Source: Candidatus Woesearchaeota archaeon
GTDB lineage: Archaea; Nanobdellota; Nanobdellia; Pacearchaeales; GW2011-AR1
Length of the DNA: 64,000 nt
Assembly (NCBI GenBank): GCA_964413095.1
Contig: CAYPRJ010000001.1
Coordinates: forward strand, 6,975-70,974
Reading direction: 5' to 3'
The notes below the pieces were generated by a model. That model searched no databases, was not told where the DNA came from, and saw nothing but the letters and a program-made list of their open reading frames with translations. Position 1 is the stretch's first letter. Each line of letters opens with the position of its first letter. Positions 16,159 to 63,173 of this stretch are shown here, piece after piece. The translations under genes and the position numbers were made by a program.

Positions 16159-19100
16159 ATGGCTACTAAAAAAGATGTTGAAGAAATTAAGAATGCTGTT
16201 TCTGGAGAGGAGAAGGAGGAAAAAGAGCCTCAGCTTACAGATTTGCCGGGAATTGGTCCTGCAGTAGCAACAAAGCTTGAATCTGCAGGAATATATGATT
16301 TAATGTCTTTAGCTGTTATGGGTCCTGCTGAGTTAGGGAATATTGCTGGTGTTAGTGCTGGTGTTGCAAGAAAAGCTATTCAAGCAGCGCGTAGTATGTT
16401 GAAACTAGGTTTTACAGATGGCTTTGAATATGCACAGAGAAGAGCTAATGTTAATTATATTACTACTGGAAGTAAAAATATTGATAATCTTCTTGGGGGA
16501 AAAGGTGTAGAAAGCAGAGCAGTTACAGAAGCATTTGGAGCTTATGGTTCTGGAAAGTGTGTAAGTAAAGACACTGCGGTTAGTTATTTTAATGATACAA
16601 GGATGCATGTTGAGCAGATACAGGAAACTTACAATAAATACAACAAAAATAATGAGTTTAAGTTTGAGGAAGGATTTGCTGTCCCTGTTTCAAGCGTAAA
16701 GGTTCTTGCTTGGAATAAGGGAAAATTAAAAGTTGCAAGAGCTTCACATTTATATAAGGAAAAAGTAAAGCAGTTATTCTTAGTAAAAACAAAAAGAGGC
16801 AGGGTTTTAAAAGTTACAGGAAAACACAGGATTTTAAGTTTTGATAATGGGGTTAAATGGAAAAAAACATCGGATTTAAAAAAAGGAGACTTAATTGCTT
16901 CTCCAAGAAAATTAGATTTGGTTACAGAAAATATTTATGATGAAGATGATGCTTATTTTTTGGGGTTGTTTGTAGCAGAAGGAACTTCAAATCCTTTTTC
17001 AATTTCAACTGGCTCTGAAAAAATAAAGAATTGGGTTTGCAATTACATAAAAAATAAATTTAGATATGTTCCTCTGGTGAGATATAATCAAAGAGGTGAA
17101 AAACCAGTTTATACAATTTTATCAAAAAATAAAACCCGCGGAATAATGGCTGGACTTGATAAATGCAACTCCTCTAATAAGTTTATTCCTGAAGCTATTT
17201 TTCTTTCAGATGAAAATGTTGTTTCTTCATTTTTAGGAGGATATCTTGATGGAGATGGAGAGGTTTCTAAAACAGATGTCTCTGCGACTACAAAAAGCTC
17301 TAAACTGGCTACACAATTAAGTTATTTGTTTTTAAGATTGGGAATTAGCGTAAGTATTAAAGAAAGAAAAAATGAAAAATATGGAAACTATAAGGTAGTT
17401 AGGGTAAGTGGTGAAGATAGAAAAAGGCTAAAAAATGTTTCTTTTAAGATAAAAAGATTTTCTCCTGATATAAGAAATAGTGCTTATGGCTATCCTCGAA
17501 AAATAATTTCTTTTCTTCACCAACTTTATAAAGAGTGTCTTGGAGGTAATAGGGGAAGATTAAGAAAAGAAGTAGGCAAAAGAAGTTTGGACAGAACTGT
17601 TTATTCTAATTTAATAAACCAATATCAGGGAAAGGTGGTAAATACAAAAACATTTAGAAGAATAGAAGATGTTTTTGAAAAACAGAAAGACAGATTTGTT
17701 CATATTTTAAAGAAACTCGAAGATGAAGAATTTAGCCAGGAAATTTTAAATGAAATCTATCCTAGTTTGCCTTTTGCTTTTAGTTCATTGGCAGAAGATA
17801 TGGGCCTGAAGAAAAAAAGCATAAGAAATTATTATCATAGAAATATTCCTAATTCAAAAAAAGAGATTTTAAAGAATCTTATTTTTAATGAATTAAAAAC
17901 CAGGGTTGATATGATTTACCTGGCTTTGGAAATTATTTCAGAAATAAAGATGTTTAATTGGGATGTTGTGGAGAGTGTTGAAGTTATTGATTATGATGAT
18001 TATGTTTATGACTTTGTTGTTCCAGAGGGGCATTCTTTTATTGGGGGCAATCTTCCTACAATGATGCATAATACTCAGCTTGGTTTAACTCTTGCTGTTA
18101 ATGTTCAATTGCCTGTTGAAAAAGGTGGTGCAAATGGAAAGTGTGTTTTTATTGATACAGAAGGAACTTTCAGACCAGCGCGTATAAAACAAATTGCTGA
18201 AATTTTAGGAGCCAATCAAGAAAAAGTTTTGAAAAATATTTTAGTTGCAAGAGCTTTTAATTCAGATCATCAAATTTTGCTTTTAGAAAAAATCTCTGAA
18301 ATGGTTAAACAAGGAGAACCAATTAAATTATTAATTGTTGATTCTTTAACTGCACATTTTAGAGCAGAGTTTTCAGGAAGAGGACAATTAGCAGACAGGC
18401 AGCAAAAATTGAATAAATATCTTCATAATTTAATGAGGCTTGCTGAACAGCACAATCTTGCAGTTTATGTTACAAATCAAGTAATGGCAAATCCTGCGCA
18501 GATGTTTGGAGATCCTACAACTGCAATTGGGGGGAATATTGTGGGACACGCTTGTTTAACAGGAGATAGTTTAATTCAATTAGCTGATGGAAGTATAAGG
18601 GAAATTAAAAATATTAGTAAGAATAATGTTATTTCTGGAAATTTAAATAAATTAAGCTTTGAACAAGCAGGCTCTGAAAAAACTTTTATCAATCCAGACA
18701 TCAAAAAAATTTACAATATTAAAACAACAAATCAAATAAAGTGTTCTCCTCTCCATAGATTTTTTTCAATAGAAAATTTTTCTATTATTGAAAAAGAAGC
18801 CAAAGATTTGAGAGAGGGGGATTTTATTGCTCATGCAGGAAGAATTGAGATAGGGGGAGAAGAGCAGGAGTTGCCGACTCTAAATTTAAGAAGAATTGGA
18901 AAAATATCTAAAGATGAGGGAAAATTAATTTCAGAGGAGCTTGGAAAAGGAAATATTTCAAGAAATGAAATATGCAAGAAAGTGGGGATAACTTCAAGGC
19001 AGTTTAGAAGGGTTTTAAATCAGTCATATCCTACAAATATTAAAGTTTTTGATGCTTTAAAAAAGCATTTTGCAAATAATCTTCAGTTACAGGTTGTTCC

Positions 19101-20166
19101 TTTTTATACTTATAAACATCAGAATATTATGATTCCTGAAACTTTAAATCCTCGGTTAGCACAAATTTGTGGCTATTTTATTGGTGATGGAAATTTTGAG
19201 GCAAGAGGTTTAAGATTTAGAGATGAAAGGGAGGGGGTTTTACAATTTTACAATAAACTCTTTTCAGAAACATTTAGGATTCAGGGAAAGATTTCTAAAA
19301 TGAAAAATAAAAATTGTTTTACTTTAAATATTAATTCAAAAGAAATTGCTGATTTTTTTAGACTTATTCTTCCGGATATTTTTGATTATGTTGCTAAATC
19401 CAAGAAAGATGTGGTAGCAGGTTTTATCAAGGGCTTTATTGATGCAGAAGGGCATGTCAATAAAAAAAGACCAAAAATAACAATTGCTCAAAAAGAAAAA
19501 CTAATTTTAAGATATTTGCAATTATTTTTGCTGAGATTTGGAATCAGAAGTTTTTTGAGATTTGATGGTGGTAAGAAAAAAATTTCAAATCTTTCAATAA
19601 GAGATCGGAGCGTTAAGGATTATTTGCAGATTGGTTTTAGTGCTGAAAGTAAACAGAAGCAATTATTAAAATGGATAAAGCATGTTAATAAGACATATCA
19701 AAAAGAAATGATGCCTATTCAAAGAAACGAGATTTTAGAACTTCTTAAAAGTGTTGGGTTAAAACCCTCTTTAATCATTAAGTCTAGACCCTCTTCTTAT
19801 AAATGGATAAATGGGGAGGAGTTAAAAAAAGCACATAATGCTCTCATGAATAGTAGAGTAAATGATAGACAAATAAAACAGAAAATTGAATTTATATTTA
19901 AACTATTAAATTCAGATATAAGATTTGAAAAAATTAGAAAGATATCAGTTTCTGAAAATAAAGGAAAAGAATTATTTTATGATTTTTCTGTTCCTAAAAA
20001 GGAGAATTATATGGCTAATGGTTTTATTGTTCATAACTCCACATACAGAATGTATTTAAGAAGAGGAAAAAAAGATTCACGAGTTGCAAAGTTAATTGAC
20101 TCTCCGAATTTGCCAGATAATGAAACAGTTTTTTATCTTACAGAGTCTGGTGTTAGAGATGAATAA
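16159..20166 (+). CDS. radA: DNA repair and recombination protein RadA containing two inteins
   Basis: The N-terminal HhH domain, Walker A GAYGSGK|..|TQLGLTLAV, Walker B LLIVDSL and C-terminal GGNIVGHA|..|STYRMYLRRGKK...LIDSPNLPD are contiguous RadA sequence once two intein blocks are removed. Confidence 0.9.
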   Translation: MATKKDVEEIKNAVSGEEKEEKEPQLTDLPGIGPAVATKLESAGIYDLMSLAVMGPAELGNIAGVSAGVARKAIQAARSMLKLGFTDGFEYAQRRANVNYITTGSKNIDNLLGGKGVESRAVTEAFGAYGSGKCVSKDTAVSYFNDTRMHVEQIQETYNKYNKNNEFKFEEGFAVPVSSVKVLAWNKGKLKVARASHLYKEKVKQLFLVKTKRGRVLKVTGKHRILSFDNGVKWKKTSDLKKGDLIASPRKLDLVTENIYDEDDAYFLGLFVAEGTSNPFSISTGSEKIKNWVCNYIKNKFRYVPLVRYNQRGEKPVYTILSKNKTRGIMAGLDKCNSSNKFIPEAIFLSDENVVSSFLGGYLDGDGEVSKTDVSATTKSSKLATQLSYLFLRLGISVSIKERKNEKYGNYKVVRVSGEDRKRLKNVSFKIKRFSPDIRNSAYGYPRKIISFLHQLYKECLGGNRGRLRKEVGKRSLDRTVYSNLINQYQGKVVNTKTFRRIEDVFEKQKDRFVHILKKLEDEEFSQEILNEIYPSLPFAFSSLAEDMGLKKKSIRNYYHRNIPNSKKEILKNLIFNELKTRVDMIYLALEIISEIKMFNWDVVESVEVIDYDDYVYDFVVPEGHSFIGGNLPTMMHNTQLGLTLAVNVQLPVEKGGANGKCVFIDTEGTFRPARIKQIAEILGANQEKVLKNILVARAFNSDHQILLLEKISEMVKQGEPIKLLIVDSLTAHFRAEFSGRGQLADRQQKLNKYLHNLMRLAEQHNLAVYVTNQVMANPAQMFGDPTTAIGGNIVGHACLTGDSLIQLADGSIREIKNISKNNVISGNLNKLSFEQAGSEKTFINPDIKKIYNIKTTNQIKCSPLHRFFSIENFSIIEKEAKDLREGDFIAHAGRIEIGGEEQELPTLNLRRIGKISKDEGKLISEELGKGNISRNEICKKVGITSRQFRRVLNQSYPTNIKVFDALKKHFANNLQLQVVPFYTYKHQNIMIPETLNPRLAQICGYFIGDGNFEARGLRFRDEREGVLQFYNKLFSETFRIQGKISKMKNKNCFTLNINSKEIADFFRLILPDIFDYVAKSKKDVVAGFIKGFIDAEGHVNKKRPKITIAQKEKLILRYLQLFLLRFGIRSFLRFDGGKKKISNLSIRDRSVKDYLQIGFSAESKQKQLLKWIKHVNKTYQKEMMPIQRNEILELLKSVGLKPSLIIKSRPSSYKWINGEELKKAHNALMNSRVNDRQIKQKIEFIFKLLNSDIRFEKIRKISVSENKGKELFYDFSVPKKENYMANGFIVHNSTYRMYLRRGKKDSRVAKLIDSPNLPDNETVFYLTESGVRDE
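16558..18072 (+). mobile_element. RadA intein 1 (505 aa) inserted in the P-loop, with LAGLIDADG homing endonuclease domain
   Basis: Starts with Cys right after GSGK, ends ...MMHN before TQL. LAGLIDADG blocks are LGLFVAEGTS and LGGYLDGDGEV. Confidence 0.85.
18553..20037 (+). mobile_element. RadA intein 2 (495 aa) with LAGLIDADG domain
   Basis: Starts CLTGDSLIQLADG, ends GFIVHN|S. LAGLIDADG blocks are ICGYFIGDGNFE and VAGFIKGFIDAEGHV. Confidence 0.85.
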
Positions 20167-22366: not shown

Positions 22367-24700
22367 ATGGATAATTTAACAAATAAAGATGTAATCTTTT
22401 CTGACTTTCATATACATTCACGATTTTCTAGAGCTTGTAGCAAAAATATTACTTTTGAGAATTTAACTAAGTGGGCGAAAATTAAAGGGCTTAACTTATT
22501 AGGTACTGGAGATTTTACTCATCCAATTTGGTTTAAAGAGATTAAGGATAAATTAATTGATAATGGAAATGGTTTTTACCTTGATTCTGCAACAGGTTTT
22601 CCGTTTATTATTACAGGAGAAATTTCTTTGATGTATTCTCAAGGAGGAAAAGGAAGAAGAGTTCATCTTGTATTGCTTGTTCCTTCAATTGAAATTGCTG
22701 AGAAGATAAATTCTTATTTTGATAAAAGAGGAAGAAGAGATTATGATGGCAGGCCTATTTTTAAAATTTCATGTGAAGATTTTGTTAAAGATATGATGGC
22801 TATCTCTGAAAGCATTGAAATAATCCCTGCTCACATTTGGACTCCCTGGTTTGGTATTTTCGGAAGCCAAACAGGATTTGATAGTTTAAAAGAAGCTTTT
22901 GGAGAACAAGTTGAAAATATTCATGCAATTGAAACCGGGATCTCATGTTATGATTCTAAAACAGAGATTTTAACAGAGAAAGGTTGGAAATTTTTTAAAG
23001 ATGTAAATAAATCTGATAATATTTGTACACTTGATCCAGAAAATTATAATATTGAATTTCAAAAGCCTCTTAATATTTTTAAAAGAAAATATAAAGGTAA
23101 AATGTATAAATTAGAAACTAAGAGAGTAAATCTTTTAGTTACCCCTAATCATAAGCTGTTTTATAGCCACTGTGATTTTAGAAAGAAACCAAATTTTTCT
23201 CTGAAAAAGGCAGAGTTATTATTCAATAAATCAAAAAGGTTTAAGAAGGATGGGAACTGGAGAGGGAAAAATCAAAAATATTTTGTTTTACCAAAAGTGA
23301 GAATTAAGCATGGAAGCAAATATTACTCAGGTGAGAGAAACAAAGAGATTAAGAAATTTCCAATTAAAGAGTGGTTGAGATTTTTTGGTTTTTGGATTGC
23401 CGAAGGATGTACACATCAGGGAAAGAATGGAGATTATGGGGTTTATATTTTTAATGATAAAAAAGATGTTCTTTTGGAAATGAAAAAGATTTTAGAGGGT
23501 TTTGGATACAGACCTTATCTTGATAAAAATATTCTTAGAGTAAGAGATTTTCAATTATTTAAATATCTAGATCAGTTTGGAAAATCTGGAGATAAATATA
23601 TCCCTTTAGAGATTAAATCTCTTTCTAAGGAATTGCTTCAACTTTTTTTTGATTATTATATTAAGGGAGATGGCCATAGATATGGAAGAAATAACAAAGG
23701 TCTTTCTGCAACAACTATCTCTAAAAAATTAAGAGATGATTTACAAGAAGTAGCTTTAAAATTAGGAATGTCTGCATATTATAAATTACATAATAAAAAA
23801 GGAACATCCATAAACTCTCTTCCAGTAGCAAAATCAAAAGGTTATAAACAATCTAAAGATTCTTGGAATGTTTATTTTATTAAAGAAAATCTTCATACAG
23901 TTATTCCCTCTACTATTAAAAAATGGAATTATAAAGAGAAATGGATTCAGTATAATGATTATGTTTATTGTGTTCAAGTTCCAAATCATGTGATTTATAT
24001 TAGAAGAAACGGCATTCCTGTTTGGTGTGGTAATTCAGACCCTGAAATGAATTGGAAAATTAAAGAGCTGACAGAGAATAATATTTCAATTGTTAGTTTT
24101 TCAGATGCTCACTCTCACTGGCCATTTAGATTAGGAAGAGAAACAACTATTTTCAAAAAAACAAATTCATATAAAGAAATTATAAGACAAATTAGAGAAA
24201 ATGATTTTATTGGAACAATTGAAACAGAGCCTGCCTATGGAAAATACCATTGGGATGGACACAGAAATTGTAATTTTTCTTGTTCTCCGAATGAAGCAAA
24301 AGAGCTTAATTATATTTGCCCTATTTGTGGAAATCCTTTGACAAGAGGAGTAGAAAACAGAGTTGAATTCTTAGCAGGAAATCCAGAGAATTTTAAACCA
24401 AAAAGTGCAAAATTTTTTTACAAACTTCTTCCTTTACATGAGCTAATTGTTTTAGTTTATGGAGGAAGTTTACAAAGCAAAAAAAACTGGGAAATTTATG
24501 ATTCTTTGATAAAAGAATTTGGAAATGAGTTCAATGTTTTGCTGAATGTTTCTAAAGAAAAATTATTAAGAATTAATTTAAATGATAAATTAGTTGAGAT
24601 GATTTTGAAAAACAGAGAGGGTAAGATTAAAGTCAAGCCAGGTTATGATGGTGTTTATGGAGAGGCATTGTTAGAAGAGAAACAATCAAAATTATTTTAA
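22367..24700 (+). CDS. endonuclease Q (EndoQ, PHP-fold) containing one intein
   Basis: The N-terminus DFHIHSRFSRACSKNITFENLTKWAKIKGLNLLGTGDFTHP matches the EndoQ PHP domain. C-terminal Zn finger CPICGNP. Intein blocks in between. Confidence 0.6.
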   Translation: MDNLTNKDVIFSDFHIHSRFSRACSKNITFENLTKWAKIKGLNLLGTGDFTHPIWFKEIKDKLIDNGNGFYLDSATGFPFIITGEISLMYSQGGKGRRVHLVLLVPSIEIAEKINSYFDKRGRRDYDGRPIFKISCEDFVKDMMAISESIEIIPAHIWTPWFGIFGSQTGFDSLKEAFGEQVENIHAIETGISCYDSKTEILTEKGWKFFKDVNKSDNICTLDPENYNIEFQKPLNIFKRKYKGKMYKLETKRVNLLVTPNHKLFYSHCDFRKKPNFSLKKAELLFNKSKRFKKDGNWRGKNQKYFVLPKVRIKHGSKYYSGERNKEIKKFPIKEWLRFFGFWIAEGCTHQGKNGDYGVYIFNDKKDVLLEMKKILEGFGYRPYLDKNILRVRDFQLFKYLDQFGKSGDKYIPLEIKSLSKELLQLFFDYYIKGDGHRYGRNNKGLSATTISKKLRDDLQEVALKLGMSAYYKLHNKKGTSINSLPVAKSKGYKQSKDSWNVYFIKENLHTVIPSTIKKWNYKEKWIQYNDYVYCVQVPNHVIYIRRNGIPVWCGNSDPEMNWKIKELTENNISIVSFSDAHSHWPFRLGRETTIFKKTNSYKEIIRQIRENDFIGTIETEPAYGKYHWDGHRNCNFSCSPNEAKELNYICPICGNPLTRGVENRVEFLAGNPENFKPKSAKFFYKLLPLHELIVLVYGGSLQSKKNWEIYDSLIKEFGNEFNVLLNVSKEKLLRINLNDKLVEMILKNREGKIKVKPGYDGVYGEALLEEKQSKLF
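22946..24034 (+). mobile_element. EndoQ intein (~363 aa) with LAGLIDADG domain; C-terminal boundary uncertain by 3 residues
   Basis: Starts CYDSKTEILTEKGWKF (block A), LAGLIDADG block FFGFWIAEGC, block F/G YVYCVQVPNHVIYIRRNGIPVWCGN|S. The terminal motif is atypical, GN rather than HN. Confidence 0.6.
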
Positions 24701-28813: not shown

Positions 28814-29074
28814 TTGTTATATATTCCAAAAACTTATAAATTAAAAAATCAGAACTCCTATCAATTTTGTTTTACTAATTATAATAAACATTTACTTAGA
28901 GGTGTTAGAAATTCTCTATTGAGTATTGGTATTAATTGTTCAAAAATTAGTAGTAGGGATATTTATATTACTAAAAAATCTGAATTAAGAAAGTTTTTAA
29001 AACTAATAGGGTTCAATAATGATAGGCATCTTAAAAAAATTAAGATGTGGAAACTTGATAGCCCCATAGTCTAG
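28814..29074 (+). pseudogene. truncated paralog (C-terminal half only) of the LAGLIDADG protein at 40711-41334, abutting a tRNA
   Basis: LLRGVRNSLLSIGINCSKISS aligns to LIKGVSKLCDELNLNCSKIKI of the 207-aa LAGLIDADG protein. No LAGLIDADG motif is retained. The stop lies inside the 5' end of the downstream tRNA. Confidence 0.45.
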
Positions 29075-29202
29075 CGGTCAAATTCTTTTGTGCTGTAAAA
29101 AGTACATAGAAGACTATAGATACAGCCCTTTGGACAGGAGATTTAATAACTAAGTCAAATGATGGAAAGGCTGTGACCTCGGTTCGAATCCGAGTGGGGC
29201 TA
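29060..29202 (+). tRNA. tRNA-Gln(TTG) candidate with two introns (D-loop ~36 nt, anticodon loop ~34 nt)
   Basis: Acceptor AGCCCCA/TGGGGCT, T-arm CTCGG-TTCGAAT-CCGAG, anticodon stem CAGCC/GGCTG with loop CTTTGG..A. Folded by hand, so the anticodon is tentative. Confidence 0.5.
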
Positions 29203-40584: not shown

Positions 40585-40720
40585 AGCCTGTGGAGGGATT
40601 CTAACCCCCGGCCTACTGCTGGCTTTCTGAACATGTAGTTGGCTCAGATACAAGGCAGTTGAGCATATCTTAACCTTTTAGAGTCACAGATATTCCGCTC
40701 TAACACTGAGCTACACAGGC
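40585..40720 (-). tRNA. tRNA-Thr(TGT) with two introns (~36 nt after the D-arm, ~28 nt at 37/38)
   Basis: Reverse complement: acceptor GCCTGTG/CACAGGC, D-arm GCTC..GAGC, anticodon stem ACTGC/GCAGT with loop CTTGTA|intron|A, T-arm GGGGG-TTAGAAT-CCCTC. Confidence 0.6.
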
Positions 40721-41334
40721 TTAATATTAGACAGAGTTATATTCTTTAAAAAGTTTTGTCCCTTCAATCTTAATGGAAGTTTATTATCAAATCTTATATA
40801 ATAAAAAGGAATTTTATTTGTATAATTTATTTTTATTTTGGAACAATTTAGATTAAGTTCGTCGCATAATTTACTTACCCCTTTTATTAAATTAAATCTT
40901 TTCTGTTTAAGCTGAATTCTTTTATTATACACAGAACCATCTGTATCAACTAATCCTGCTAGATAATTTAGTGCACAAGTTTTATTTGTTTTAACTATCT
41001 TTGGGATTTTCCCAAATTTCTTCTTTCCAATTTCACTTTCTAATTTTACAAAATAAAAAAATAACCCTGCGTTTTCTATCTTTAAATAATATGAATTTTG
41101 TTTTCTATTATCTTTGTTAATCTTTCCATTAACTGAAAAAAGTTTGTTTAACACGTTTCTAATGTAATCAATATAGATTTCACTCCCTGAATAAACTCTG
41201 AGAAGATAATGATAACCTCCTTTTTTTCTTTTCGTTATACTTAAAGAACCATCACCTTCTATAACTCCTAAAAGATATGCAATATCTTTATTTATTGTGG
41301 GTATGTTTATTTCACTCCTTCTTGTTTTTATCAT
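40711..41334 (-). CDS. free-standing LAGLIDADG homing endonuclease-like protein
   Basis: Two LAGLIDADG motifs, YLLGVIEGDGSL and YLAGLVDTDGSV. 207 aa. The stop codon lies inside the 5' acceptor stem of tRNA-Thr. Confidence 0.8.
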   Translation of the reverse strand: MIKTRRSEINIPTINKDIAYLLGVIEGDGSLSITKRKKGGYHYLLRVYSGSEIYIDYIRNVLNKLFSVNGKINKDNRKQNSYYLKIENAGLFFYFVKLESEIGKKKFGKIPKIVKTNKTCALNYLAGLVDTDGSVYNKRIQLKQKRFNLIKGVSKLCDELNLNCSKIKINYTNKIPFYYIRFDNKLPLRLKGQNFLKNITLSNIKPV

Positions 41335-51533: not shown

Positions 51534-51720
51534 TAGTTAAATTACGCGGGAGAAAGGATTCGAATGAAAACTTCTGACTCTGAAATCACACTTCCAGCAA
51601 CCTGAATCCTATTTATGCGGGAGAAAGGATTCAAATTCAAAACCTCGCGGTTTTGTATCCAGATGCAACTTCCTCTTTTTGCCTTTGAAGGAAGTTATCA
51701 TATAGTTCGAATCCTATTTA

Positions 51721-51858
51721 TGCGGGAGAAAGGATTCGAACCTTCGCAGGCACTAAGCCAACAGGTTTCTTCGAGTTAGTTTGCGTTATTTGTGAGACAT
51801 AATCTCTCGCAATCTTCTCGCCTAAGCCTGTCCCGTTTGACCACTCCGGCACTCCCGC
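51721..51858 (-). tRNA. tRNA-Leu(TAG), class II with long variable arm, 54-nt intron at 37/38
   Basis: Reverse complement: acceptor GCGGGAG/CTCCCGC, anticodon stem ACAGG/CCTGT with loop CTTAGG|intron|A, variable arm TGGCTTAGTGCCTGC, T-arm GAAGG-TTCGAAT-CCTTT. Confidence 0.7.
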
Positions 51859-52012
51859 ATTCAAGAGGAGTGGGAAAACTCGTTTGACCCGAAAGTTCTC
51901 GTGAACTTCCTGTAGCCCTTAATTTGAGCGAGGGCTTGAGTTCTCCGGCACTCCCGCATAGAATTAAAGAGAATTTTGAATATAAAAAGCTTTTTAGAAT
52001 TAATGGTTGAGA

Positions 52013-55504: not shown

Positions 55505-55738
55505 TTGATTCTTATTTTTAGAATGAGCATGCTTGGAGATTATATGTGTCCTTTTATTGATGGATGTGAACCTTGTATTTCAAAAAATGATTGTCCTTCT
55601 GATCCTGAAAATTGTTCATACTACCAAATGATGATTTTTAAAGCTAAACACGAGATGAGAGATATGTCTAACAAAGAATTAACTGATTACTTTGATACAA
55701 AGGATTTAGCTTTAGAAACATGGGATTTTGGTGATTAA
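55505..55738 (+). CDS. hypothetical small Cys-containing protein
   Basis: 77-aa ORF (CPFIDGCEPCISKNDCPSDPENC). Confidence 0.2.
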   Translation: MILIFRMSMLGDYMCPFIDGCEPCISKNDCPSDPENCSYYQMMIFKAKHEMRDMSNKELTDYFDTKDLALETWDFGD

Positions 55739-55913
55739 TTTTTTGAATTGGTTAATAGAAAGATTTTAAATATTCTATTTTTCTTTGATTAATAGTGAGC
55801 CCCTGTAGCTCACGTAAGAAACCAAGGTTCCTTGACGTTCAACCTCCTTTGTGGCACTGTTGGGTGATTTCAAGTTGCCTTCGGTGAAATCGCGGACGCT
55901 ACAGGAGACAAGC

Positions 55914-56037
55914 CCCTGTAGCTCAGCCTGGATAGAGCGACTGCCTTCTATGCTATTGGCAGTGTCGTACATTGTTGCGATTATTTGTCTTCAGCGGATA
56001 GCAGTAGGCCGCAGGTTCGAATCCTGTCGGGGGCATT
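55914..56037 (+). tRNA. tRNA-Arg(TCT) with 49-nt intron at 37/38
   Basis: Acceptor GCCCCTG/CGGGGGC, D-arm GCTC-AGCCTGGATA-GAGC, anticodon stem ACTGC/GCAGT with loop CTTCTA|intron|A, T-arm GCAGG-TTCGAAT-CCTGT. Confidence 0.65.
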
Positions 56038-56128
56038 TAGGATTCGATAAATTAGTTTAAACGCATTCAAATAGGAAGGTTAAGCGAAGGAAACTTCGTG
56101 TCCTCGCTTCGAATCCTGTCAGGGGCAT

Positions 56129-56986
56129 TTGAAAAAAATGAAAAGCAAAAAAGAGGTGGAATTAAAATTTCCCTTAAGTAAAAAAGAAAAATATGTAGCA
56201 ATGCTTGCTCCTAGTTTTGTTGTTGATTTCTCTTATCCTAAAATAATTCATCAACTTAGGGAATTAGGTTTTGATAAAATTGTTGAATTGACTTTTGGAG
56301 CAAAAATGATTAATAGAGATTATCATAAAAAATTGAAAAAATCTAAAGAATTAGTTATTGCAAGTGTTTGTCCTGGTGTTGTTGAAACAATAAAAAATAA
56401 ATTTCCAAGGTATAAAAAAAATCTTATTAAAGTTGACAGTCCCATGATTGCTACAGCAAAGATTTGTAAAAAAATTTATCCAAATTATAAGATAGTCTTT
56501 ATTTCTCCTTGTGATTATAAAAAAACAGAAGCACAGAAAACAAATTATATTGATTATGTTGTTGACTATGGAAGATTGAAAAAATTACTCAAAAAAATTA
56601 AGATTAAAAAGAAGGGAAAAATTTTGTTTGATAAATTTTATAATGATTACACTAAAATTTATCCTGTTGCAGGAGGGCTCTCAAAAACAGCGAATCTTAA
56701 AGGATCTTTAAAAGAAAATGAGGTTATGATTATTGATGGAATTAATGATGTTATTAAATTTCTTAAAAAACCAAAAAAAGGAATAAGGTTTCTTGATGCT
56801 ACTTTTTGCAAGGGAAGTTGTGTTGGAGGTCCTTGTATAAATTCTAAATTACCTATTAAATTGAGAAAAAAGAAGATTTTGAATTATTTAAAAAAAGCAA
56901 AACAAGAGGATATTCCTGATACTAGAAAAGGAATTATTAAGAGAGCTAAAGGAATTTCTTTTTCTTCTAATTTCCCAAGCAAATAA
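56129..56986 (+). CDS. minimal [FeFe]-hydrogenase H-cluster domain-like protein (HydA/Narf-like, 285 aa)
   Basis: LAPSFVV..LRELGFDKIVELTFGAKM, L1-like IASVCPGVV (TSCCP with the first Cys replaced by Val), L2 ISPCDYKKTEAQ (MPCxxKxxE) and L3 FCKGSCVGGP (CxxGCxxGG). Confidence 0.6.
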   Translation: MKKMKSKKEVELKFPLSKKEKYVAMLAPSFVVDFSYPKIIHQLRELGFDKIVELTFGAKMINRDYHKKLKKSKELVIASVCPGVVETIKNKFPRYKKNLIKVDSPMIATAKICKKIYPNYKIVFISPCDYKKTEAQKTNYIDYVVDYGRLKKLLKKIKIKKKGKILFDKFYNDYTKIYPVAGGLSKTANLKGSLKENEVMIIDGINDVIKFLKKPKKGIRFLDATFCKGSCVGGPCINSKLPIKLRKKKILNYLKKAKQEDIPDTRKGIIKRAKGISFSSNFPSK

Positions 56987-57017: not shown

Positions 57018-57090
57018 GCGGAGGTGGCACAGTGGCTACTGCATCTGGTTGCAGCCCAGATTTTCGTGGGTTCGAATCCCACCCTCCGCT
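57018..57090 (+). tRNA. tRNA-Cys(GCA), intronless
   Basis: Acceptor GCGGAGG/CCTCCGC, anticodon arm TCTGG-TTGCAGC-CCAGA, T-arm GTGGG-TTCGAAT-CCCAC. 73 nt. Confidence 0.85.
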
Positions 57091-57260
57091 TAAACAATCT
57101 AAGGATTGTTTAATGGACGTGACTCTTCGAGTCCTAACTCGGTCATTGAAAAGTCGTTATTGATAAATTAAATTTGTCGCTTTCCAATAACCTCGCCCTC
57201 CGCTTATCTGTTACGTATAGGTATAGTGGACATTTAAAAAATAAAAATCAGGATTGTAAA

Positions 57261-62654: not shown

Positions 62655-63173
62655 TTATGGCCTTATCCATCCCACTTCATAATATGTGACATCTCCTTCT
62701 TCATCAACAATTGCTAGAAGTAAGTTCTTTTTTGTAGAGTGTGCTATTCTTGTTTTTGCTGAAAATTCGTGCCAGGTTAATTTTCCAGATTCATGGTCTG
62801 TGAATACAAGCCATTTTGCATGTTTTTTTCCTGGGCGTGCTCCTTTTTCATAAACTCTAAATTCTGCACCAAATTTCAATGCTGTTTTTACTATATAACC
62901 TCTTTCTCTTAAATCTTTAAACACAGGATATTTTATTTGAATTTTCTTATCTATTCTTCTTAACTTTGATATTAGGTCCTTTTTTGAAATTTTTTTGGTT
63001 TTTGAAAATGCTTCTGCTTTTCCTTTTTCAACTAAGAATAAAACTTCTGATGGGGAGTATTGGATTTTTTCTCCTACAGGCTCACCAAAACAACTTTTTT
63101 TATATAGAGAAAATGCTTCTGCATCATTGCTTGAGATTATTTCTCCTATGATATATATTTTAATTTTTTCCAT
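62655..63173 (-). CDS. endA: tRNA-splicing endonuclease EndA
   Basis: The catalytic C-terminal domain ALKFGAEFRVYEKG...HAKWLVF with the conserved Tyr, His and Lys. 172 aa. Confidence 0.8.
   Translation of the reverse strand: MEKIKIYIIGEIISSNDAEAFSLYKKSCFGEPVGEKIQYSPSEVLFLVEKGKAEAFSKTKKISKKDLISKLRRIDKKIQIKYPVFKDLRERGYIVKTALKFGAEFRVYEKGARPGKKHAKWLVFTDHESGKLTWHEFSAKTRIAHSTKKNLLLAIVDEEGDVTYYEVGWIRP

Follow-up and report, generated by a model that had tools for sequence, protein, structure and literature searches.

Duplicated ends of an archaeal tRNA-Arg(UCU) gene as probable footprints of two miniature DNA insertions

The tRNA-Arg(UCU) locus described here lies in a window of 64,000 nucleotides (the whole stretch of DNA that was analysed) from a Candidatus Woesearchaeota archaeon. 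It is one functional gene with a canonical intron, and its duplicated termini are probably the footprints of two independent small DNA insertions by miniature non-autonomous elements. As the best reading, these footprints represent a small-scale variant of the known att duplications at tRNA genes. The gene decodes AGA codons and is encoded once in the window. The features of the locus are as follows.

55757-55772, plus strand: predicted archaeal promoter, BRE/TATA-like AGAAAGATTTTAAATA
55798-55812, plus strand: outer 5' copy (base -1 and tRNA positions 1-14), 15/15 identical to 55911-55925
55813-55910, plus strand: upstream insert, 98 nt, 52% G+C, T runs of at most 3
55898-55905, plus strand: anti-segment GCTACAGG, complementary over 8 bp to tRNA positions 4-11 (CCTGTAGC) in both 5' copies
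55912-56035, plus strand: tRNA-Arg(UCU), with exon 1 at 55912-55950, intron at 55951-55999 and exon 2 at 56000-56035
56016-56038, plus strand: inner 3' copy, T-loop through discriminator A73 followed by TTT (repeat family D1)
56039-56107, plus strand: downstream insert, 69 nt, starting with AGGATTCGA (56039-56047) and ending with GTGTCCTCGC
56108-56130, plus strand: outer 3' copy, T54 to A73 followed by TTT, with A for G67, 22/23 identical to 56016-56038
56138-56986, plus strand: downstream gene for an Fe_hyd_lg_C domain protein (Pfam, 2.6e-38), used as synteny anchor

The tRNA-Arg(UCU) gene reached 55.9 bits with the Rfam tRNA model (RF00005), being the sole tRNA match in 55600-56300, and ARAGORN with introns allowed (-i) reported it as tRNA-Arg(tct) i(40,49). 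According to both programs the inner tRNA is complete without excision of either insert. Its canonical 49-nt intron is bounded by a relaxed form of the archaeal splicing signal, a bulge-helix-bulge (BHB) junction consisting of a 5-bp anticodon stem and a central helix of 3/4 bp without an intron-side helix. At least five tRNAs in the window contain introns, and the splicing endonuclease EndA is encoded at 62655-63173. Two short ORFs, 55775-55972(-) and 55851-56060(+), overlap the tRNA and have no Pfam match, consistent with the view of the first-pass annotation that they are artefacts.

Both termini of the gene are present twice. The 5' repeat AGCCCCTGTAGCTCA is found at 55798-55812 and 55911-55925, with a spacing of 113 nt, and the 3' repeat TTCGAATCCTGTC[G/A]GGGGCATTT, which comprises the last 20 nt of the tRNA and TTT, occurs in two copies spaced 92 nt. 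Neither of the terminal 14-mers was found elsewhere in the 64-kb window on either strand, and a second exact 15-mer on the same strand within 400 nt is expected about 4e-7 times by chance (an estimate from a uniform base model). The first-pass annotation had described a 14-nt 5' repeat at 55801-55814, 113 nt from a tRNA start at 55914; repeat and distance are real, but the coordinates are 2 nt too high, the start being 55912, and three coordinates in that annotation are shifted by +2 altogether. The 3' near-copy it had placed at 56109-56132, with 22/24 identities and a distance of 91 nt, is likewise real, but lies at 56108-56130, with 22/23 identities at a spacing of 92 nt. The outer copies are the bounds of a G+C island (55798-56130) of about 47-55%, compared to 29% in the window.

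In addition, each insert contains a segment complementary to the adjacent tRNA end. The 8-bp stem partner GCTACAGG lies exactly where it had been reported and pairs with both copies of CCTGTAGC, and at the other end of the gene AGGATTCGA (56039-56047) is complementary over 9 bp to the T-loop segment TCGAATCCT in both 3' copies. Taken alone, the 8-bp and 9-bp complements have chance probabilities of roughly p = 0.01 and 0.004 by our own count, and they become more telling in view of equivalent anti-segments at other loci. Anti-segments 6-9 nt upstream of the inner tRNA are also present at the tRNA-Met of L008 (GCTACAG) and the tRNA-Leu of the window (CACTCC). They are often tailored to the local tRNA, as seen at the tRNA-Arg of L005, where ATTTGAACC faces a T-loop that reads TTCAAAT.

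The native context of the gene is found outside the duplicated termini. The predicted promoter AGAAAGATTTTAAATA has an equivalent with the same motif at the same distance upstream of tRNA-Arg in the relatives L008, L015, L047, L068 and L073, and it precedes the outer 5' copy, which lies at the orthologous distance from it, rather than the inner one. No TATA-like box was found in the 40 nt before the inner tRNA-Arg. On the other side, the outer 3' copy ends 10 nt before the ATG at 56138, which is the position of the tRNA 3' end in relatives. That the outer copies are the ones in native context leads to the conclusion that DNA of 98 nt and of 69 nt entered within the two ends of the gene, in each case together with a duplicated terminal segment.

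Using the Fe_hyd_lg_C gene as anchor, 80 related loci were obtained, and tRNA-Arg(TCT) is syntenic with this gene in about 35 of them. Flanking copies at the syntenic tRNA were present only in L012 and L017 (5') and in L005 and L026 (3'), with inserts unrelated to those of the window, while most orthologous loci have none, so that presence or absence varies between species. This comparison of orthologous loci had been proposed as a check on a second tRNA, and the lack of flanking copies at most syntenic genes speaks against it. The relatives also bear on the remark that the outer 3' copy, with its A67, would give a better U6-A67 pair than the genuine tRNA: A67 is indeed present, but U6-G67 also occurs in L023 and L032, and A67 is probably a derived change.

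As we picture it, a 98-nt insert would have entered tRNA-Arg after position 14 and a 69-nt insert before position 54, each bringing a second terminal tRNA segment, which would leave a complete tRNA in the middle and the original ends outside as fragments. A presumed recombinase or transposase acting in trans would insert the putatively mobile miniature elements, in the manner of a small attL/attR duplication. Transcription of the whole unit probably starts at the native promoter, which lies ahead of the outer 5' copy; if the unit is co-transcribed in this way, tRNA-Arg would carry a leader of about 113-117 nt and a longer trailer, to be removed by ordinary end-processing.

The same architecture recurs at other tRNAs in Woesearchaeota/Pacearchaeota contigs, and the window itself contains a second such locus, at tRNA-Leu(UAA), as well as a repeated tRNA-Cys end.

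51545-51959, minus strand: tRNA-Leu(UAA) locus of the same architecture, with the tRNA at 51858-51721 and a 5' copy at about 51957-51943
about 51635-51604 and about 51564-51545, minus strand: two 3' copies of tRNA-Leu(UAA)
57082-57092 and again 57196-57206, plus strand: 3' end of tRNA-Cys CCCTCCGCTTA, an 11-nt exact repeat 114 nt downstream

The copies are directed strictly outward: among the 77 tRNAs of L001-L080 and the window, 5' copies were found upstream of six tRNAs and downstream of none, 3' copies downstream of eight and upstream of none, and antisense copies of tRNA termini at none. In independent data, an exact 3' copy 62-125 nt downstream is present in 10 of 17 low-GC metagenome contigs that contain a tRNA followed by GGATTCGA, and at none of about 25 high-GC bacterial tRNAs. 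The insert sizes are discrete, the 24 near copies giving 43-256 nt and mostly 53-120 nt, and only two copies are more than 400 nt away within the flanks examined. Exact repeats have lengths of 13-32 nt, or 12-17 nt when the T-loop is assigned to the element. Over the 24 instances the 3' repeats start 13 to 30 nt before the tRNA 3' end and stop between -2 and +11 nt from it (+28 in the tandem unit of L026). Tandem amplification is seen in L008 (3 x 48 nt) and L012 (2 x 66 nt), with tandem units in L016 and L026 too, and the outer copies have decayed at L086, L100, L107 and L164. An apparent upstream copy in L043 was discarded as a likely scaffold-gap artefact, a run of N standing between identical sequences.

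Furthermore, the inserts are related to each other across genes. The downstream insert is homologous to the one that follows tRNA-Leu(AAG) in contig L129 of a metagenome (95% over 43 nt, E = 3e-14). In the upstream insert, about 55815-55855 shows homology, when inverted, with a module that adjoins the tRNA-Cys 3' copy of L030 (90% over 31 nt, E = 7e-7). Five module families are common to different tRNAs or genomes. One module occurs at L005 Arg, L005 Cys and L008 Met, another at both L184 Asp and L184 Lys, and a 22-nt hairpin is identical but inverted between L199 and L133, both of them tRNA-Gln genes that differ at many positions. The inserts form part of a loose population of hairpin-containing, non-coding sequences of 40-120 nt at the ends of Woesearchaeota/Pacearchaeota-type tRNAs.

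Candidate functions at the RNA level were searched for in the inserts. Their folds are no more stable than those of shuffled sequences, with z = -0.69 for the upstream and z = -0.33 for the downstream insert, and on these values a structured RNA was rejected; the z = -2.77 of the whole 351 nt is due mainly to the tRNA and to pairing between the repeats. A credible Rfam family was not found for the downstream insert, and the only Rfam match in the flanks was SNORD57 on the opposite strand, with 18.9 bits against a gathering score of 47. A C/D-box guide RNA was discarded, as C or D boxes were not found in the flanks by eye. BLAST gave no matches when the inserts were compared with genuine introns from this set of loci, and the likeness of 55879-55900 to an intron of L098 (20/27) is within chance.

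The 3' insert has candidate terminal inverted repeats, AGGATTCGA at 56039-56047 and its inverted counterpart TCGAATCCT at 56109-56117 (9 bp), the right end merging into the tRNA copy. The left end (A)GGATTCGAA(C) recurs in other 3' inserts, but this set was chosen using that very pattern. Neither inverted termini nor a terminus complementary to the T-loop, as in the 3' inserts, was found in 5' inserts.

Other known systems for comparison are MITEs and also casposon/CRISPR-type integration, which makes long target duplications at tRNA 3' ends. The inserts described here resemble them in being small and non-coding, in the putative 9-bp inverted termini of the 3' insert, in the duplication of the target segment between T-loop and insert over 12-17 nt and, as regards MITEs, in the multiple related copies at different sites formed by the five module families. 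They differ in that the length of the duplication is not fixed, in the 5' inserts without inverted termini and in that neither a Cas1 nor a transposase partner was seen. Duplication lengths of 13-32 nt do not agree with a transposase of fixed stagger, and the tailored anti-segments are not predicted by a simple cut-and-paste element. A retro-copy origin, in which the cDNA of a mature tRNA replaced an intron-containing gene, was rejected because the inner copy has no CCA and keeps the genomic trailer TTT.

Going beyond insertion by miniature elements, it is conceivable, though we would put it forward only tentatively, that the inserts belong to an undescribed miniature mobile class which homes to both ends of tRNA genes and is a vehicle for non-canonical introns or gene splitting. 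The hosts of such a class may be DPANN archaea together with some bacterial-type contigs of unclear affiliation. Its 3' version would end in the complement of the universal T-loop, and the duplicated segment would let the gene survive. The inserts, being probably co-transcribed, G+C-rich and placed at 14/15 and 53/54, could be the DNA-level vehicle for non-canonical introns; the duplicated inner segment would then decay and a BHB motif evolve, giving rise to an intron or a split gene. Very short inserts that share modules and come with duplicated gene ends are found again and again at the tRNA genes of these reduced archaeal genomes, and the element-bearing loci look like possible early intermediates that are open to metagenomic and transcriptomic study.

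Partial duplication of a tRNA by an integrase, giving attL and attR, is the closest known process (Reiter 1989; Williams 2002; outlined in the archaeal review PMC9897764). As there, a complete tRNA stands beside a same-strand partial copy of one of its terminal segments, the 3' repeats begin in the T-loop and extend a little past the 3' end, and relatives differ in having or lacking the copies. The gene also remains intact in both, since the segment that is displaced is replaced from the incoming DNA. This extent of the 3' repeats agrees with one class of att sites at tRNA genes, the T-loop class (Williams 2002, as cited in PMC9897764). In contrast to attL and attR, however, the repeats are 69-98 nt rather than kilobases apart, both ends of one gene are hit, the only ORFs are the two artefactual ones overlapping tRNA-Arg and no integrase lies between the repeats, the same short module accompanies different tRNAs, and the classification of att sites includes nothing comparable to the 5' repeats. 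The suggestion of att-type scars, as at tRNA-Leu, came close to the best explanation, with the reservation that the repeats are separated by a short distance and enclose no element body.

Classical integrases carry one specific tRNA segment, and the presence of the same module beside different tRNAs is a point against the miniature att-like insertion proposed above. It is unlikely that full-size integrase elements were integrated into the 5' and 3' parts of the gene and then almost wholly deleted, leaving attL and attR 69-98 nt apart. Such scars would agree with the extent of the 3' repeats, typical of att sites, with the 1.05-kb cargo-bearing insert between the 3' copies of L164 and with the frequency of partial tRNA duplication upon archaeal integration, in which complete and partial copy commonly flank 9-23 kb (PMC9897764); in another integration case a 5' tRNA fragment lies 1.8 kb upstream (PMC3293823). 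However, random decay should yield a broad range of sizes instead of the narrow one seen in the 24 near copies, independent deletion remnants are not expected to share modules across tRNAs and genomes, and no integrase remnants were found.

An insert next to a tRNA fragment is also known from the tRNA-Thr(GGU) of Caldiarchaeum subterraneum, where a 5' fragment and a 1.8-kb recombinase-bearing element led to a model of tRNA disruption and intron gain (Sugahara et al. 2012, PMC3293823). Here, too, inserted DNA separates a 5' tRNA fragment from the complete gene downstream, and the insertion is linked to the way in which disrupted tRNA genes evolved; the insert at tRNA-Arg differs in being 98 nt long, non-coding and probably co-transcribed.

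Local repair or replication errors, i.e. template switching or snap-back at breaks in highly transcribed tRNA genes that leave direct or inverted copies and filler, appear improbable as the origin of the repeats. They would account for the anti-segments, which are inverted copies of the adjacent tRNA segment and often tailored to it, for the variable duplication lengths and for the tandem amplification once a repeat exists. Local filler should not, however, be 90-100% identical between different tRNAs in different genomes, and most of the insert sequence has no local template in the window.

The flanks had also been suspected of hiding a second, nested or fragmented tRNA with the entire tRNA-Arg in its intron, which is not supported by our results: no anticodon arm was found in the flanks, nor a convincing BHB to join the outer pieces in register. 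The proposed use of ACAGG (55901-55905) as a T-stem strand fails as well: the chimera of 55791-55905 and 56108-56140 is not a tRNA by ARAGORN defaults, and at -ps80 it yields only a malformed Leu(caa), in which the D arm and the anticodon stem are defective. Prediction of BHB motifs, likewise suggested as a check, was carried out manually and by script, scoring central-helix base pairs, exon-side helix length and intron-side helix length. The best junctions that preserve the tRNA register scored 4, 0, 3 at the 5' side (with two G-U pairs and a central palindrome) and 4, 0, 0 at the 3' side (central palindrome only), compared to 3, 5, 0 for the genuine intron. A motif with flanking helices other than very weak ones was not found in a tRNA-preserving register, in a search of limited power as the genuine intron is itself relaxed. 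Other BHB-like matches in the region would delete essential parts of the tRNA.

Register-preserving splices across either duplication would recreate the same tRNA-Arg. Most improbable among the explanations considered here is that the outer fragments are exons and that the inserts and inner duplicates are non-canonical introns or young proto-introns at 14/15 and 53/54, removed by EndA to give a nested or alternatively spliced tRNA-Arg. The organism does splice tRNA introns, as the EndA gene and the intron-bearing tRNAs in the window indicate, the promoter precedes the outer 5' copy, and a 4-bp palindrome lies at -6 to -3 from the end of the 5' duplication in both Arg (AGCT) and Leu (CCGG), the position of a BHB central helix. 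Moreover, 53/54 is a known site of non-canonical introns, similar ones having spread between tRNAs by a DNA-level mechanism that is unexplained (PMC4090602). Nevertheless, these central helices have no supporting flanking helices, L012 and L017 have no palindrome, the outer chimera does not adopt a tRNA fold, and the inner tRNA is complete at 55.9 bits without removal of an intron. The modules are found in both orientations and the outer copies decay. In addition, the architecture also occurs beside CCA-encoding, bacterial-type tRNA-Ser genes (L090, L123), and bacterial-type tRNAs have no BHB splicing, which argues against dependence on the archaeal splicing machinery.

Non-canonical BHB introns have been reported to undergo intron transposition between archaeal tRNA genes (Fujishima et al. 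2010, as summarised in PMC4090602). In that summary they resemble our inserts as short, G+C-rich sequences at positions such as 53/54 that are near-identical in different tRNA genes and whose mechanism is presumed to act on DNA. The inserts at tRNA-Arg differ by junctions that form no convincing BHB, by their location outside a complete tRNA and by the flanking exon duplications, which are not known from transposed introns. Split and permuted tRNA genes, known from Nanoarchaeum equitans and from Desulfurococcales and Thermoproteales (PMC3218864), share the occurrence of tRNA fragments in DPANN and other archaea and the complementary leader and trailer segments. At tRNA-Arg, in contrast, the fragments duplicate an intact gene and no half is missing, so that neither trans- nor cis-splicing is needed.

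For annotation, the terminal fragments could pass for tRNA pseudogenes or for att sites of non-existent proviruses, and the tRNA set of this region is partly missed by ARAGORN defaults and by the Rfam gathering thresholds, each on its own. As to the enzyme that miniature insertions would require, searches of the window turned up neither an integrase nor a transposase nor any other mobilising gene, and mobilising families are absent among the Pfam families hit by at least two of the 149 ORFs next to element-bearing tRNAs. Free-standing LAGLIDADG genes lie beside tRNA genes here and would count among the candidates, together with tyrosine or serine recombinases and Cas1-like proteins. Neither a pair of empty and filled sites within one population nor a free form of the element was seen. 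The patterns TTCGAATCCT..AGGATTCGA and TTTCACRAGTGC..GCAACGAGTG gave no matches in the viral contigs of IMG/VR. The one match of GGAAGGTTAAGCGAAGG lies in a coding region and was attributed to chance. Finally, GGAACCAAGGTTCCTTRACG has one match there; a tRNA-like minihelix precedes it by about 100 nt in the viral contig, which as a single case is suggestive.

The source of the window (29% G+C) is a DPANN archaeon belonging to the Woesearchaeota/Pacearchaeota group (Nanoarchaeota in GTDB), and 80 related loci, nearly all from Woesearchaeota/Pacearchaeota-type genomes, were retrieved with the protein encoded downstream of its tRNA-Arg locus. At least five tRNAs of the window contain introns, and a tRNA splicing endonuclease is encoded. 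A single tRNA was placed at the locus, which ARAGORN called with a 49-nt intron when introns were allowed and overlooked when they were disallowed. At the intron junction the bulge-helix-bulge (BHB) is no more than a relaxed one: the anticodon stem has 5 bp, the central helix 3/4 bp, and the intron side lacks a helix. Both termini of this complete tRNA (inner copies) are repeated in flanking segments (outer copies).

Features of the locus and of related sites (positions in the window)
51545-51959, -: tRNA-Leu(UAA) locus; one 5' copy upstream, two successive 3' copies downstream
55798-55812 and 55911-55925: 5' repeat AGCCCCTGTAGCTCA, 15/15 identical
55898-55905: anti-segment GCTACAGG, complement of both 5' copies
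55912-56035, +: tRNA-Arg(tct), Rfam 55.9 bits
55912-55950, +: exon 1 (by counting)
55951-55999, +: intron (by counting)
56000-56035, +: exon 2 (by counting)
56016-56038 and 56108-56130: 3' repeat TTCGAATCCTGTC[G/A]GGGGCATTT, 22/23 identical
56039-56047: AGGATTCGA, complement of the T-loop segment in both 3' copies
57082-57206, +: tRNA-Cys 3' end CCCTCCGCTTA, 11-nt copy 114 nt downstream
62655-63173, -: tRNA splicing endonuclease, 172 aa, N- and C-terminal domains both present

The tRNA-Arg locus is best read as a small-scale variant of the duplications produced by integration into tRNA genes. Chance is a most unlikely source of the direct repeats, since neither terminal 14-mer of the tRNA occurs elsewhere in the window, and an island of about 47-55% G+C spans from outer copy to outer copy. 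The first-pass annotation had recognized the repeats and placed GCTACAGG exactly; its coordinates for two of the copies and for the tRNA start were 2 nt too high, and AGGATTCGA was absent from it.

Which copies are original was settled by aligning the junctions with syntenic loci. The motif AGAAAGATTTTAAATA (55757-55772) precedes the outer 5' copy and lies at equal distance upstream of tRNA-Arg in five relatives (L008, L015, L047, L068 and L073), and no TATA-like box was found in the sequence preceding the inner tRNA. The Fe_hyd_lg_C gene has its ATG (56138) 10 nt past the end of the outer 3' copy; in relatives the distance from tRNA end to this ATG is about 4-16 nt. Motif and ATG spacing thus identify the outer fragments as the gene's native ends, with DNA inserted inside them. 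On the 5' side the gain was 98 nt together with a second copy of positions -1 to 14; on the 3' side, positions 54 to +3 were copied anew and 69 nt added. With native outer ends, the transcript would probably start near the outer copy and carry a leader of roughly 113-117 nt.

The feature recurs with a fixed direction. Among 77 tRNAs of the related genome loci and the window, 5' 12-mers recur upstream of six (one probably a scaffold artefact) and downstream of none, 3' 16-mers recur downstream of eight and upstream of none, and antisense copies were not found. At tRNA-Leu(UAA), taaatAGGATTC follows each of the first two of three 3' segments, namely that of the tRNA itself and the nearer copy, and the array resembles a pair of tandem insertions. 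At tRNA-Cys, a G+C-rich stretch extends to about 57236. Tandem units of tRNA end plus insert were also seen downstream of tRNA-Met in L008 (6520-6681, -; three of 48 nt) and upstream of tRNA-Arg in L012 (2469-2543, +; two of 66 nt). In L016, L026 and L043, runs of N fall exactly within such repeats, suggesting that the repeats break assemblies.

When metagenomes were scanned for T-loops with the loop's complement behind them, many low-GC contigs of archaeal type came up with the arrangement tRNA, (A)GGATTCGAA(C), 50-120 nt, copy of the tRNA's own 3' end; this copy was present at 10/17 of the low-GC tRNAs with GGATTCGAA behind them versus 0/~25 high-GC bacterial tRNAs. The same insert-plus-3'-copy pattern occurs at bacterial-type tRNA-Ser genes with encoded CCA (L090, L123). 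Within the flanks examined, near copies are far more numerous than distant ones: 24 are near, their inserts measuring 43-256 nt and mostly 53-120 nt, against two that lie more than 400 nt away. The 3' end in L164 (reverse strand, ~1383-2715) is a cassette-like array of tRNA, 125-nt insert, decayed 3' copy, ~1.05-kb insert and second, exact 3' copy; the larger insert holds two small ORFs, and inspection by eye gave a RelE/ParE-like motif in one of them.

Inserts at different tRNAs share modules. The 3' insert at tRNA-Arg is 95% identical over 43 nt to that of a tRNA-Leu(AAG) in L129, with the shared ending ...GTGTCCTCGC, then TTCGAATCC, and the 5' insert (~55815-55855) is homologous, in inverted orientation, to the 3' module of a tRNA-Cys in L030, the same module end facing the outer tRNA fragment in both. 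TTTCACGAGTGC...GCAACGAGTG is common to tRNA-Arg and tRNA-Cys of L005 and tRNA-Met of L008, a hairpin module to tRNA-Asp and tRNA-Lys of L184, and an identical, inverted 22-nt hairpin to the tRNA-Gln genes of L199 and L133, which themselves differ at many positions. Such identity between different tRNAs and divergent hosts, irrespective of orientation, speaks for spread at the DNA level and against vertical inheritance or an RNA function that depends on orientation. The outer copies in L086, L100, L107 and L164 carry 2-3 mismatches that would disrupt acceptor pairing, as expected of non-functional fragments. A viral contig from IMG/VR (L202, 1224-1401, -) contains a tRNA-like minihelix that consists solely of an acceptor stem and a T arm (weak tmRNA match, 14.9 bits); the hairpin AAGGAACCAAGGTTCCTTAACG, about 100 nt downstream of it, is also found at 55818-55840 of the window and beside the tRNA-Cys of L030.

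Site-specific integration into tRNA genes, which leaves complete and partial tRNA copies at the two ends of an element (PMC9897764; PMC3293823), is the closest known process and fits in part. The alternative of att-site scars, raised in the first-pass annotation, agrees with the extent of the 3' repeats, which reach from the T-loop to just beyond the 3' end. Unlike in such integration, however, element body and integrase are both absent here, one module lies beside different tRNAs, the repeats are much more closely spaced, repeat length varies, and in many cases the anti-segments are fitted to the adjacent tRNA. Given these misfits, the favoured reading is miniature non-autonomous units, which would be mobilised in trans and inserted at tRNA ends. 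Decay of large integrated elements and repair-synthesis artefacts are lesser rivals. So is the use of outer pieces or inserts as proto-introns or exons, which gains slightly from the 5' duplications at tRNA-Arg and tRNA-Leu ending exactly 2 nt past a 4-nt palindrome, just as the central helix of a BHB would be placed; this geometry is however missing at L012 and L017, and a staggered DNA cut at the palindrome would yield the identical pattern. The locus is of interest mainly because it may represent an intermediate stage on the way to disrupted tRNA genes in archaea.

A second, nested tRNA, as first proposed, is unsupported by flank content, construct and junctions alike. The flanks offer nothing usable as D-arm 3' strand, anticodon arm or variable region, and the proposed construct (outer 5' piece ... 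ACAGG plus outer 3' piece) was not called a tRNA at default thresholds and gave a malformed structure at the 80% threshold. In-register splicing from outer to inner copies just rebuilds tRNA-Arg(tct). Its central BHB helix would have to form between a sequence and the duplicate of that sequence, which restricts it to 4-nt palindromes; AGCT (tRNA positions 9-12) and TCGA (T-loop) are present, with no supporting helices. Scored as central-helix base pairs, exon-side and intron-side helix length, the register-preserving junctions reach 4, 0, 3 with two G-U pairs, and 4, 0, 0. At the remaining BHB-like matches in the region, splicing would remove essential tRNA parts. In fold stability the inserts do not exceed shuffled sequence (z = -0.69 and z = -0.33), and they matched no Rfam family. 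The U6-A67 pair of the outer copy, first taken as the better pair, would most simply be a mutation in a non-functional fragment, U6-G67 being common to the relatives L023 and L032. Comparison with orthologous loci likewise went against nesting: most relatives' tRNA-Arg genes lack flanking copies. Copies are found 5' in L012 and L017 and 3' in L005 and L026, with inserts unrelated to those of the window, and the feature is therefore repeatedly acquired, not conserved.

No integrase family recurs near the element-bearing tRNAs; LAGLIDADG_3 is among the few families that do. In the window, a free-standing LAGLIDADG endonuclease gene (40711-41334, -) and a LAGLIDADG fragment (28814-29074, +) lie directly upstream of tRNA genes, read into them and stop within the first 15 nt, an arrangement also seen at a tRNA-Gln in L107. 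The window's tRNA-Gln(UUG) (29060-29202, +) apparently has two introns, in the D-loop region and after the anticodon; it is labelled 'Ile(aat)' by ARAGORN -i, falls below the Rfam gathering threshold and has no flanking insert. Two inteins with LAGLIDADG domains split the RadA/Rad51 gene (16159-20166, +), and a second intein-containing protein is encoded at 22367-24700 (+). Finally, among the loci L001-L080 the tRNA-Arg(TCT) beside the Fe_hyd_lg_C gene lies on the + strand relative to its neighbours in about 17 cases and on the - strand in about 10, and this flip between related genomes suggests local inversions at the tRNA-Arg gene.
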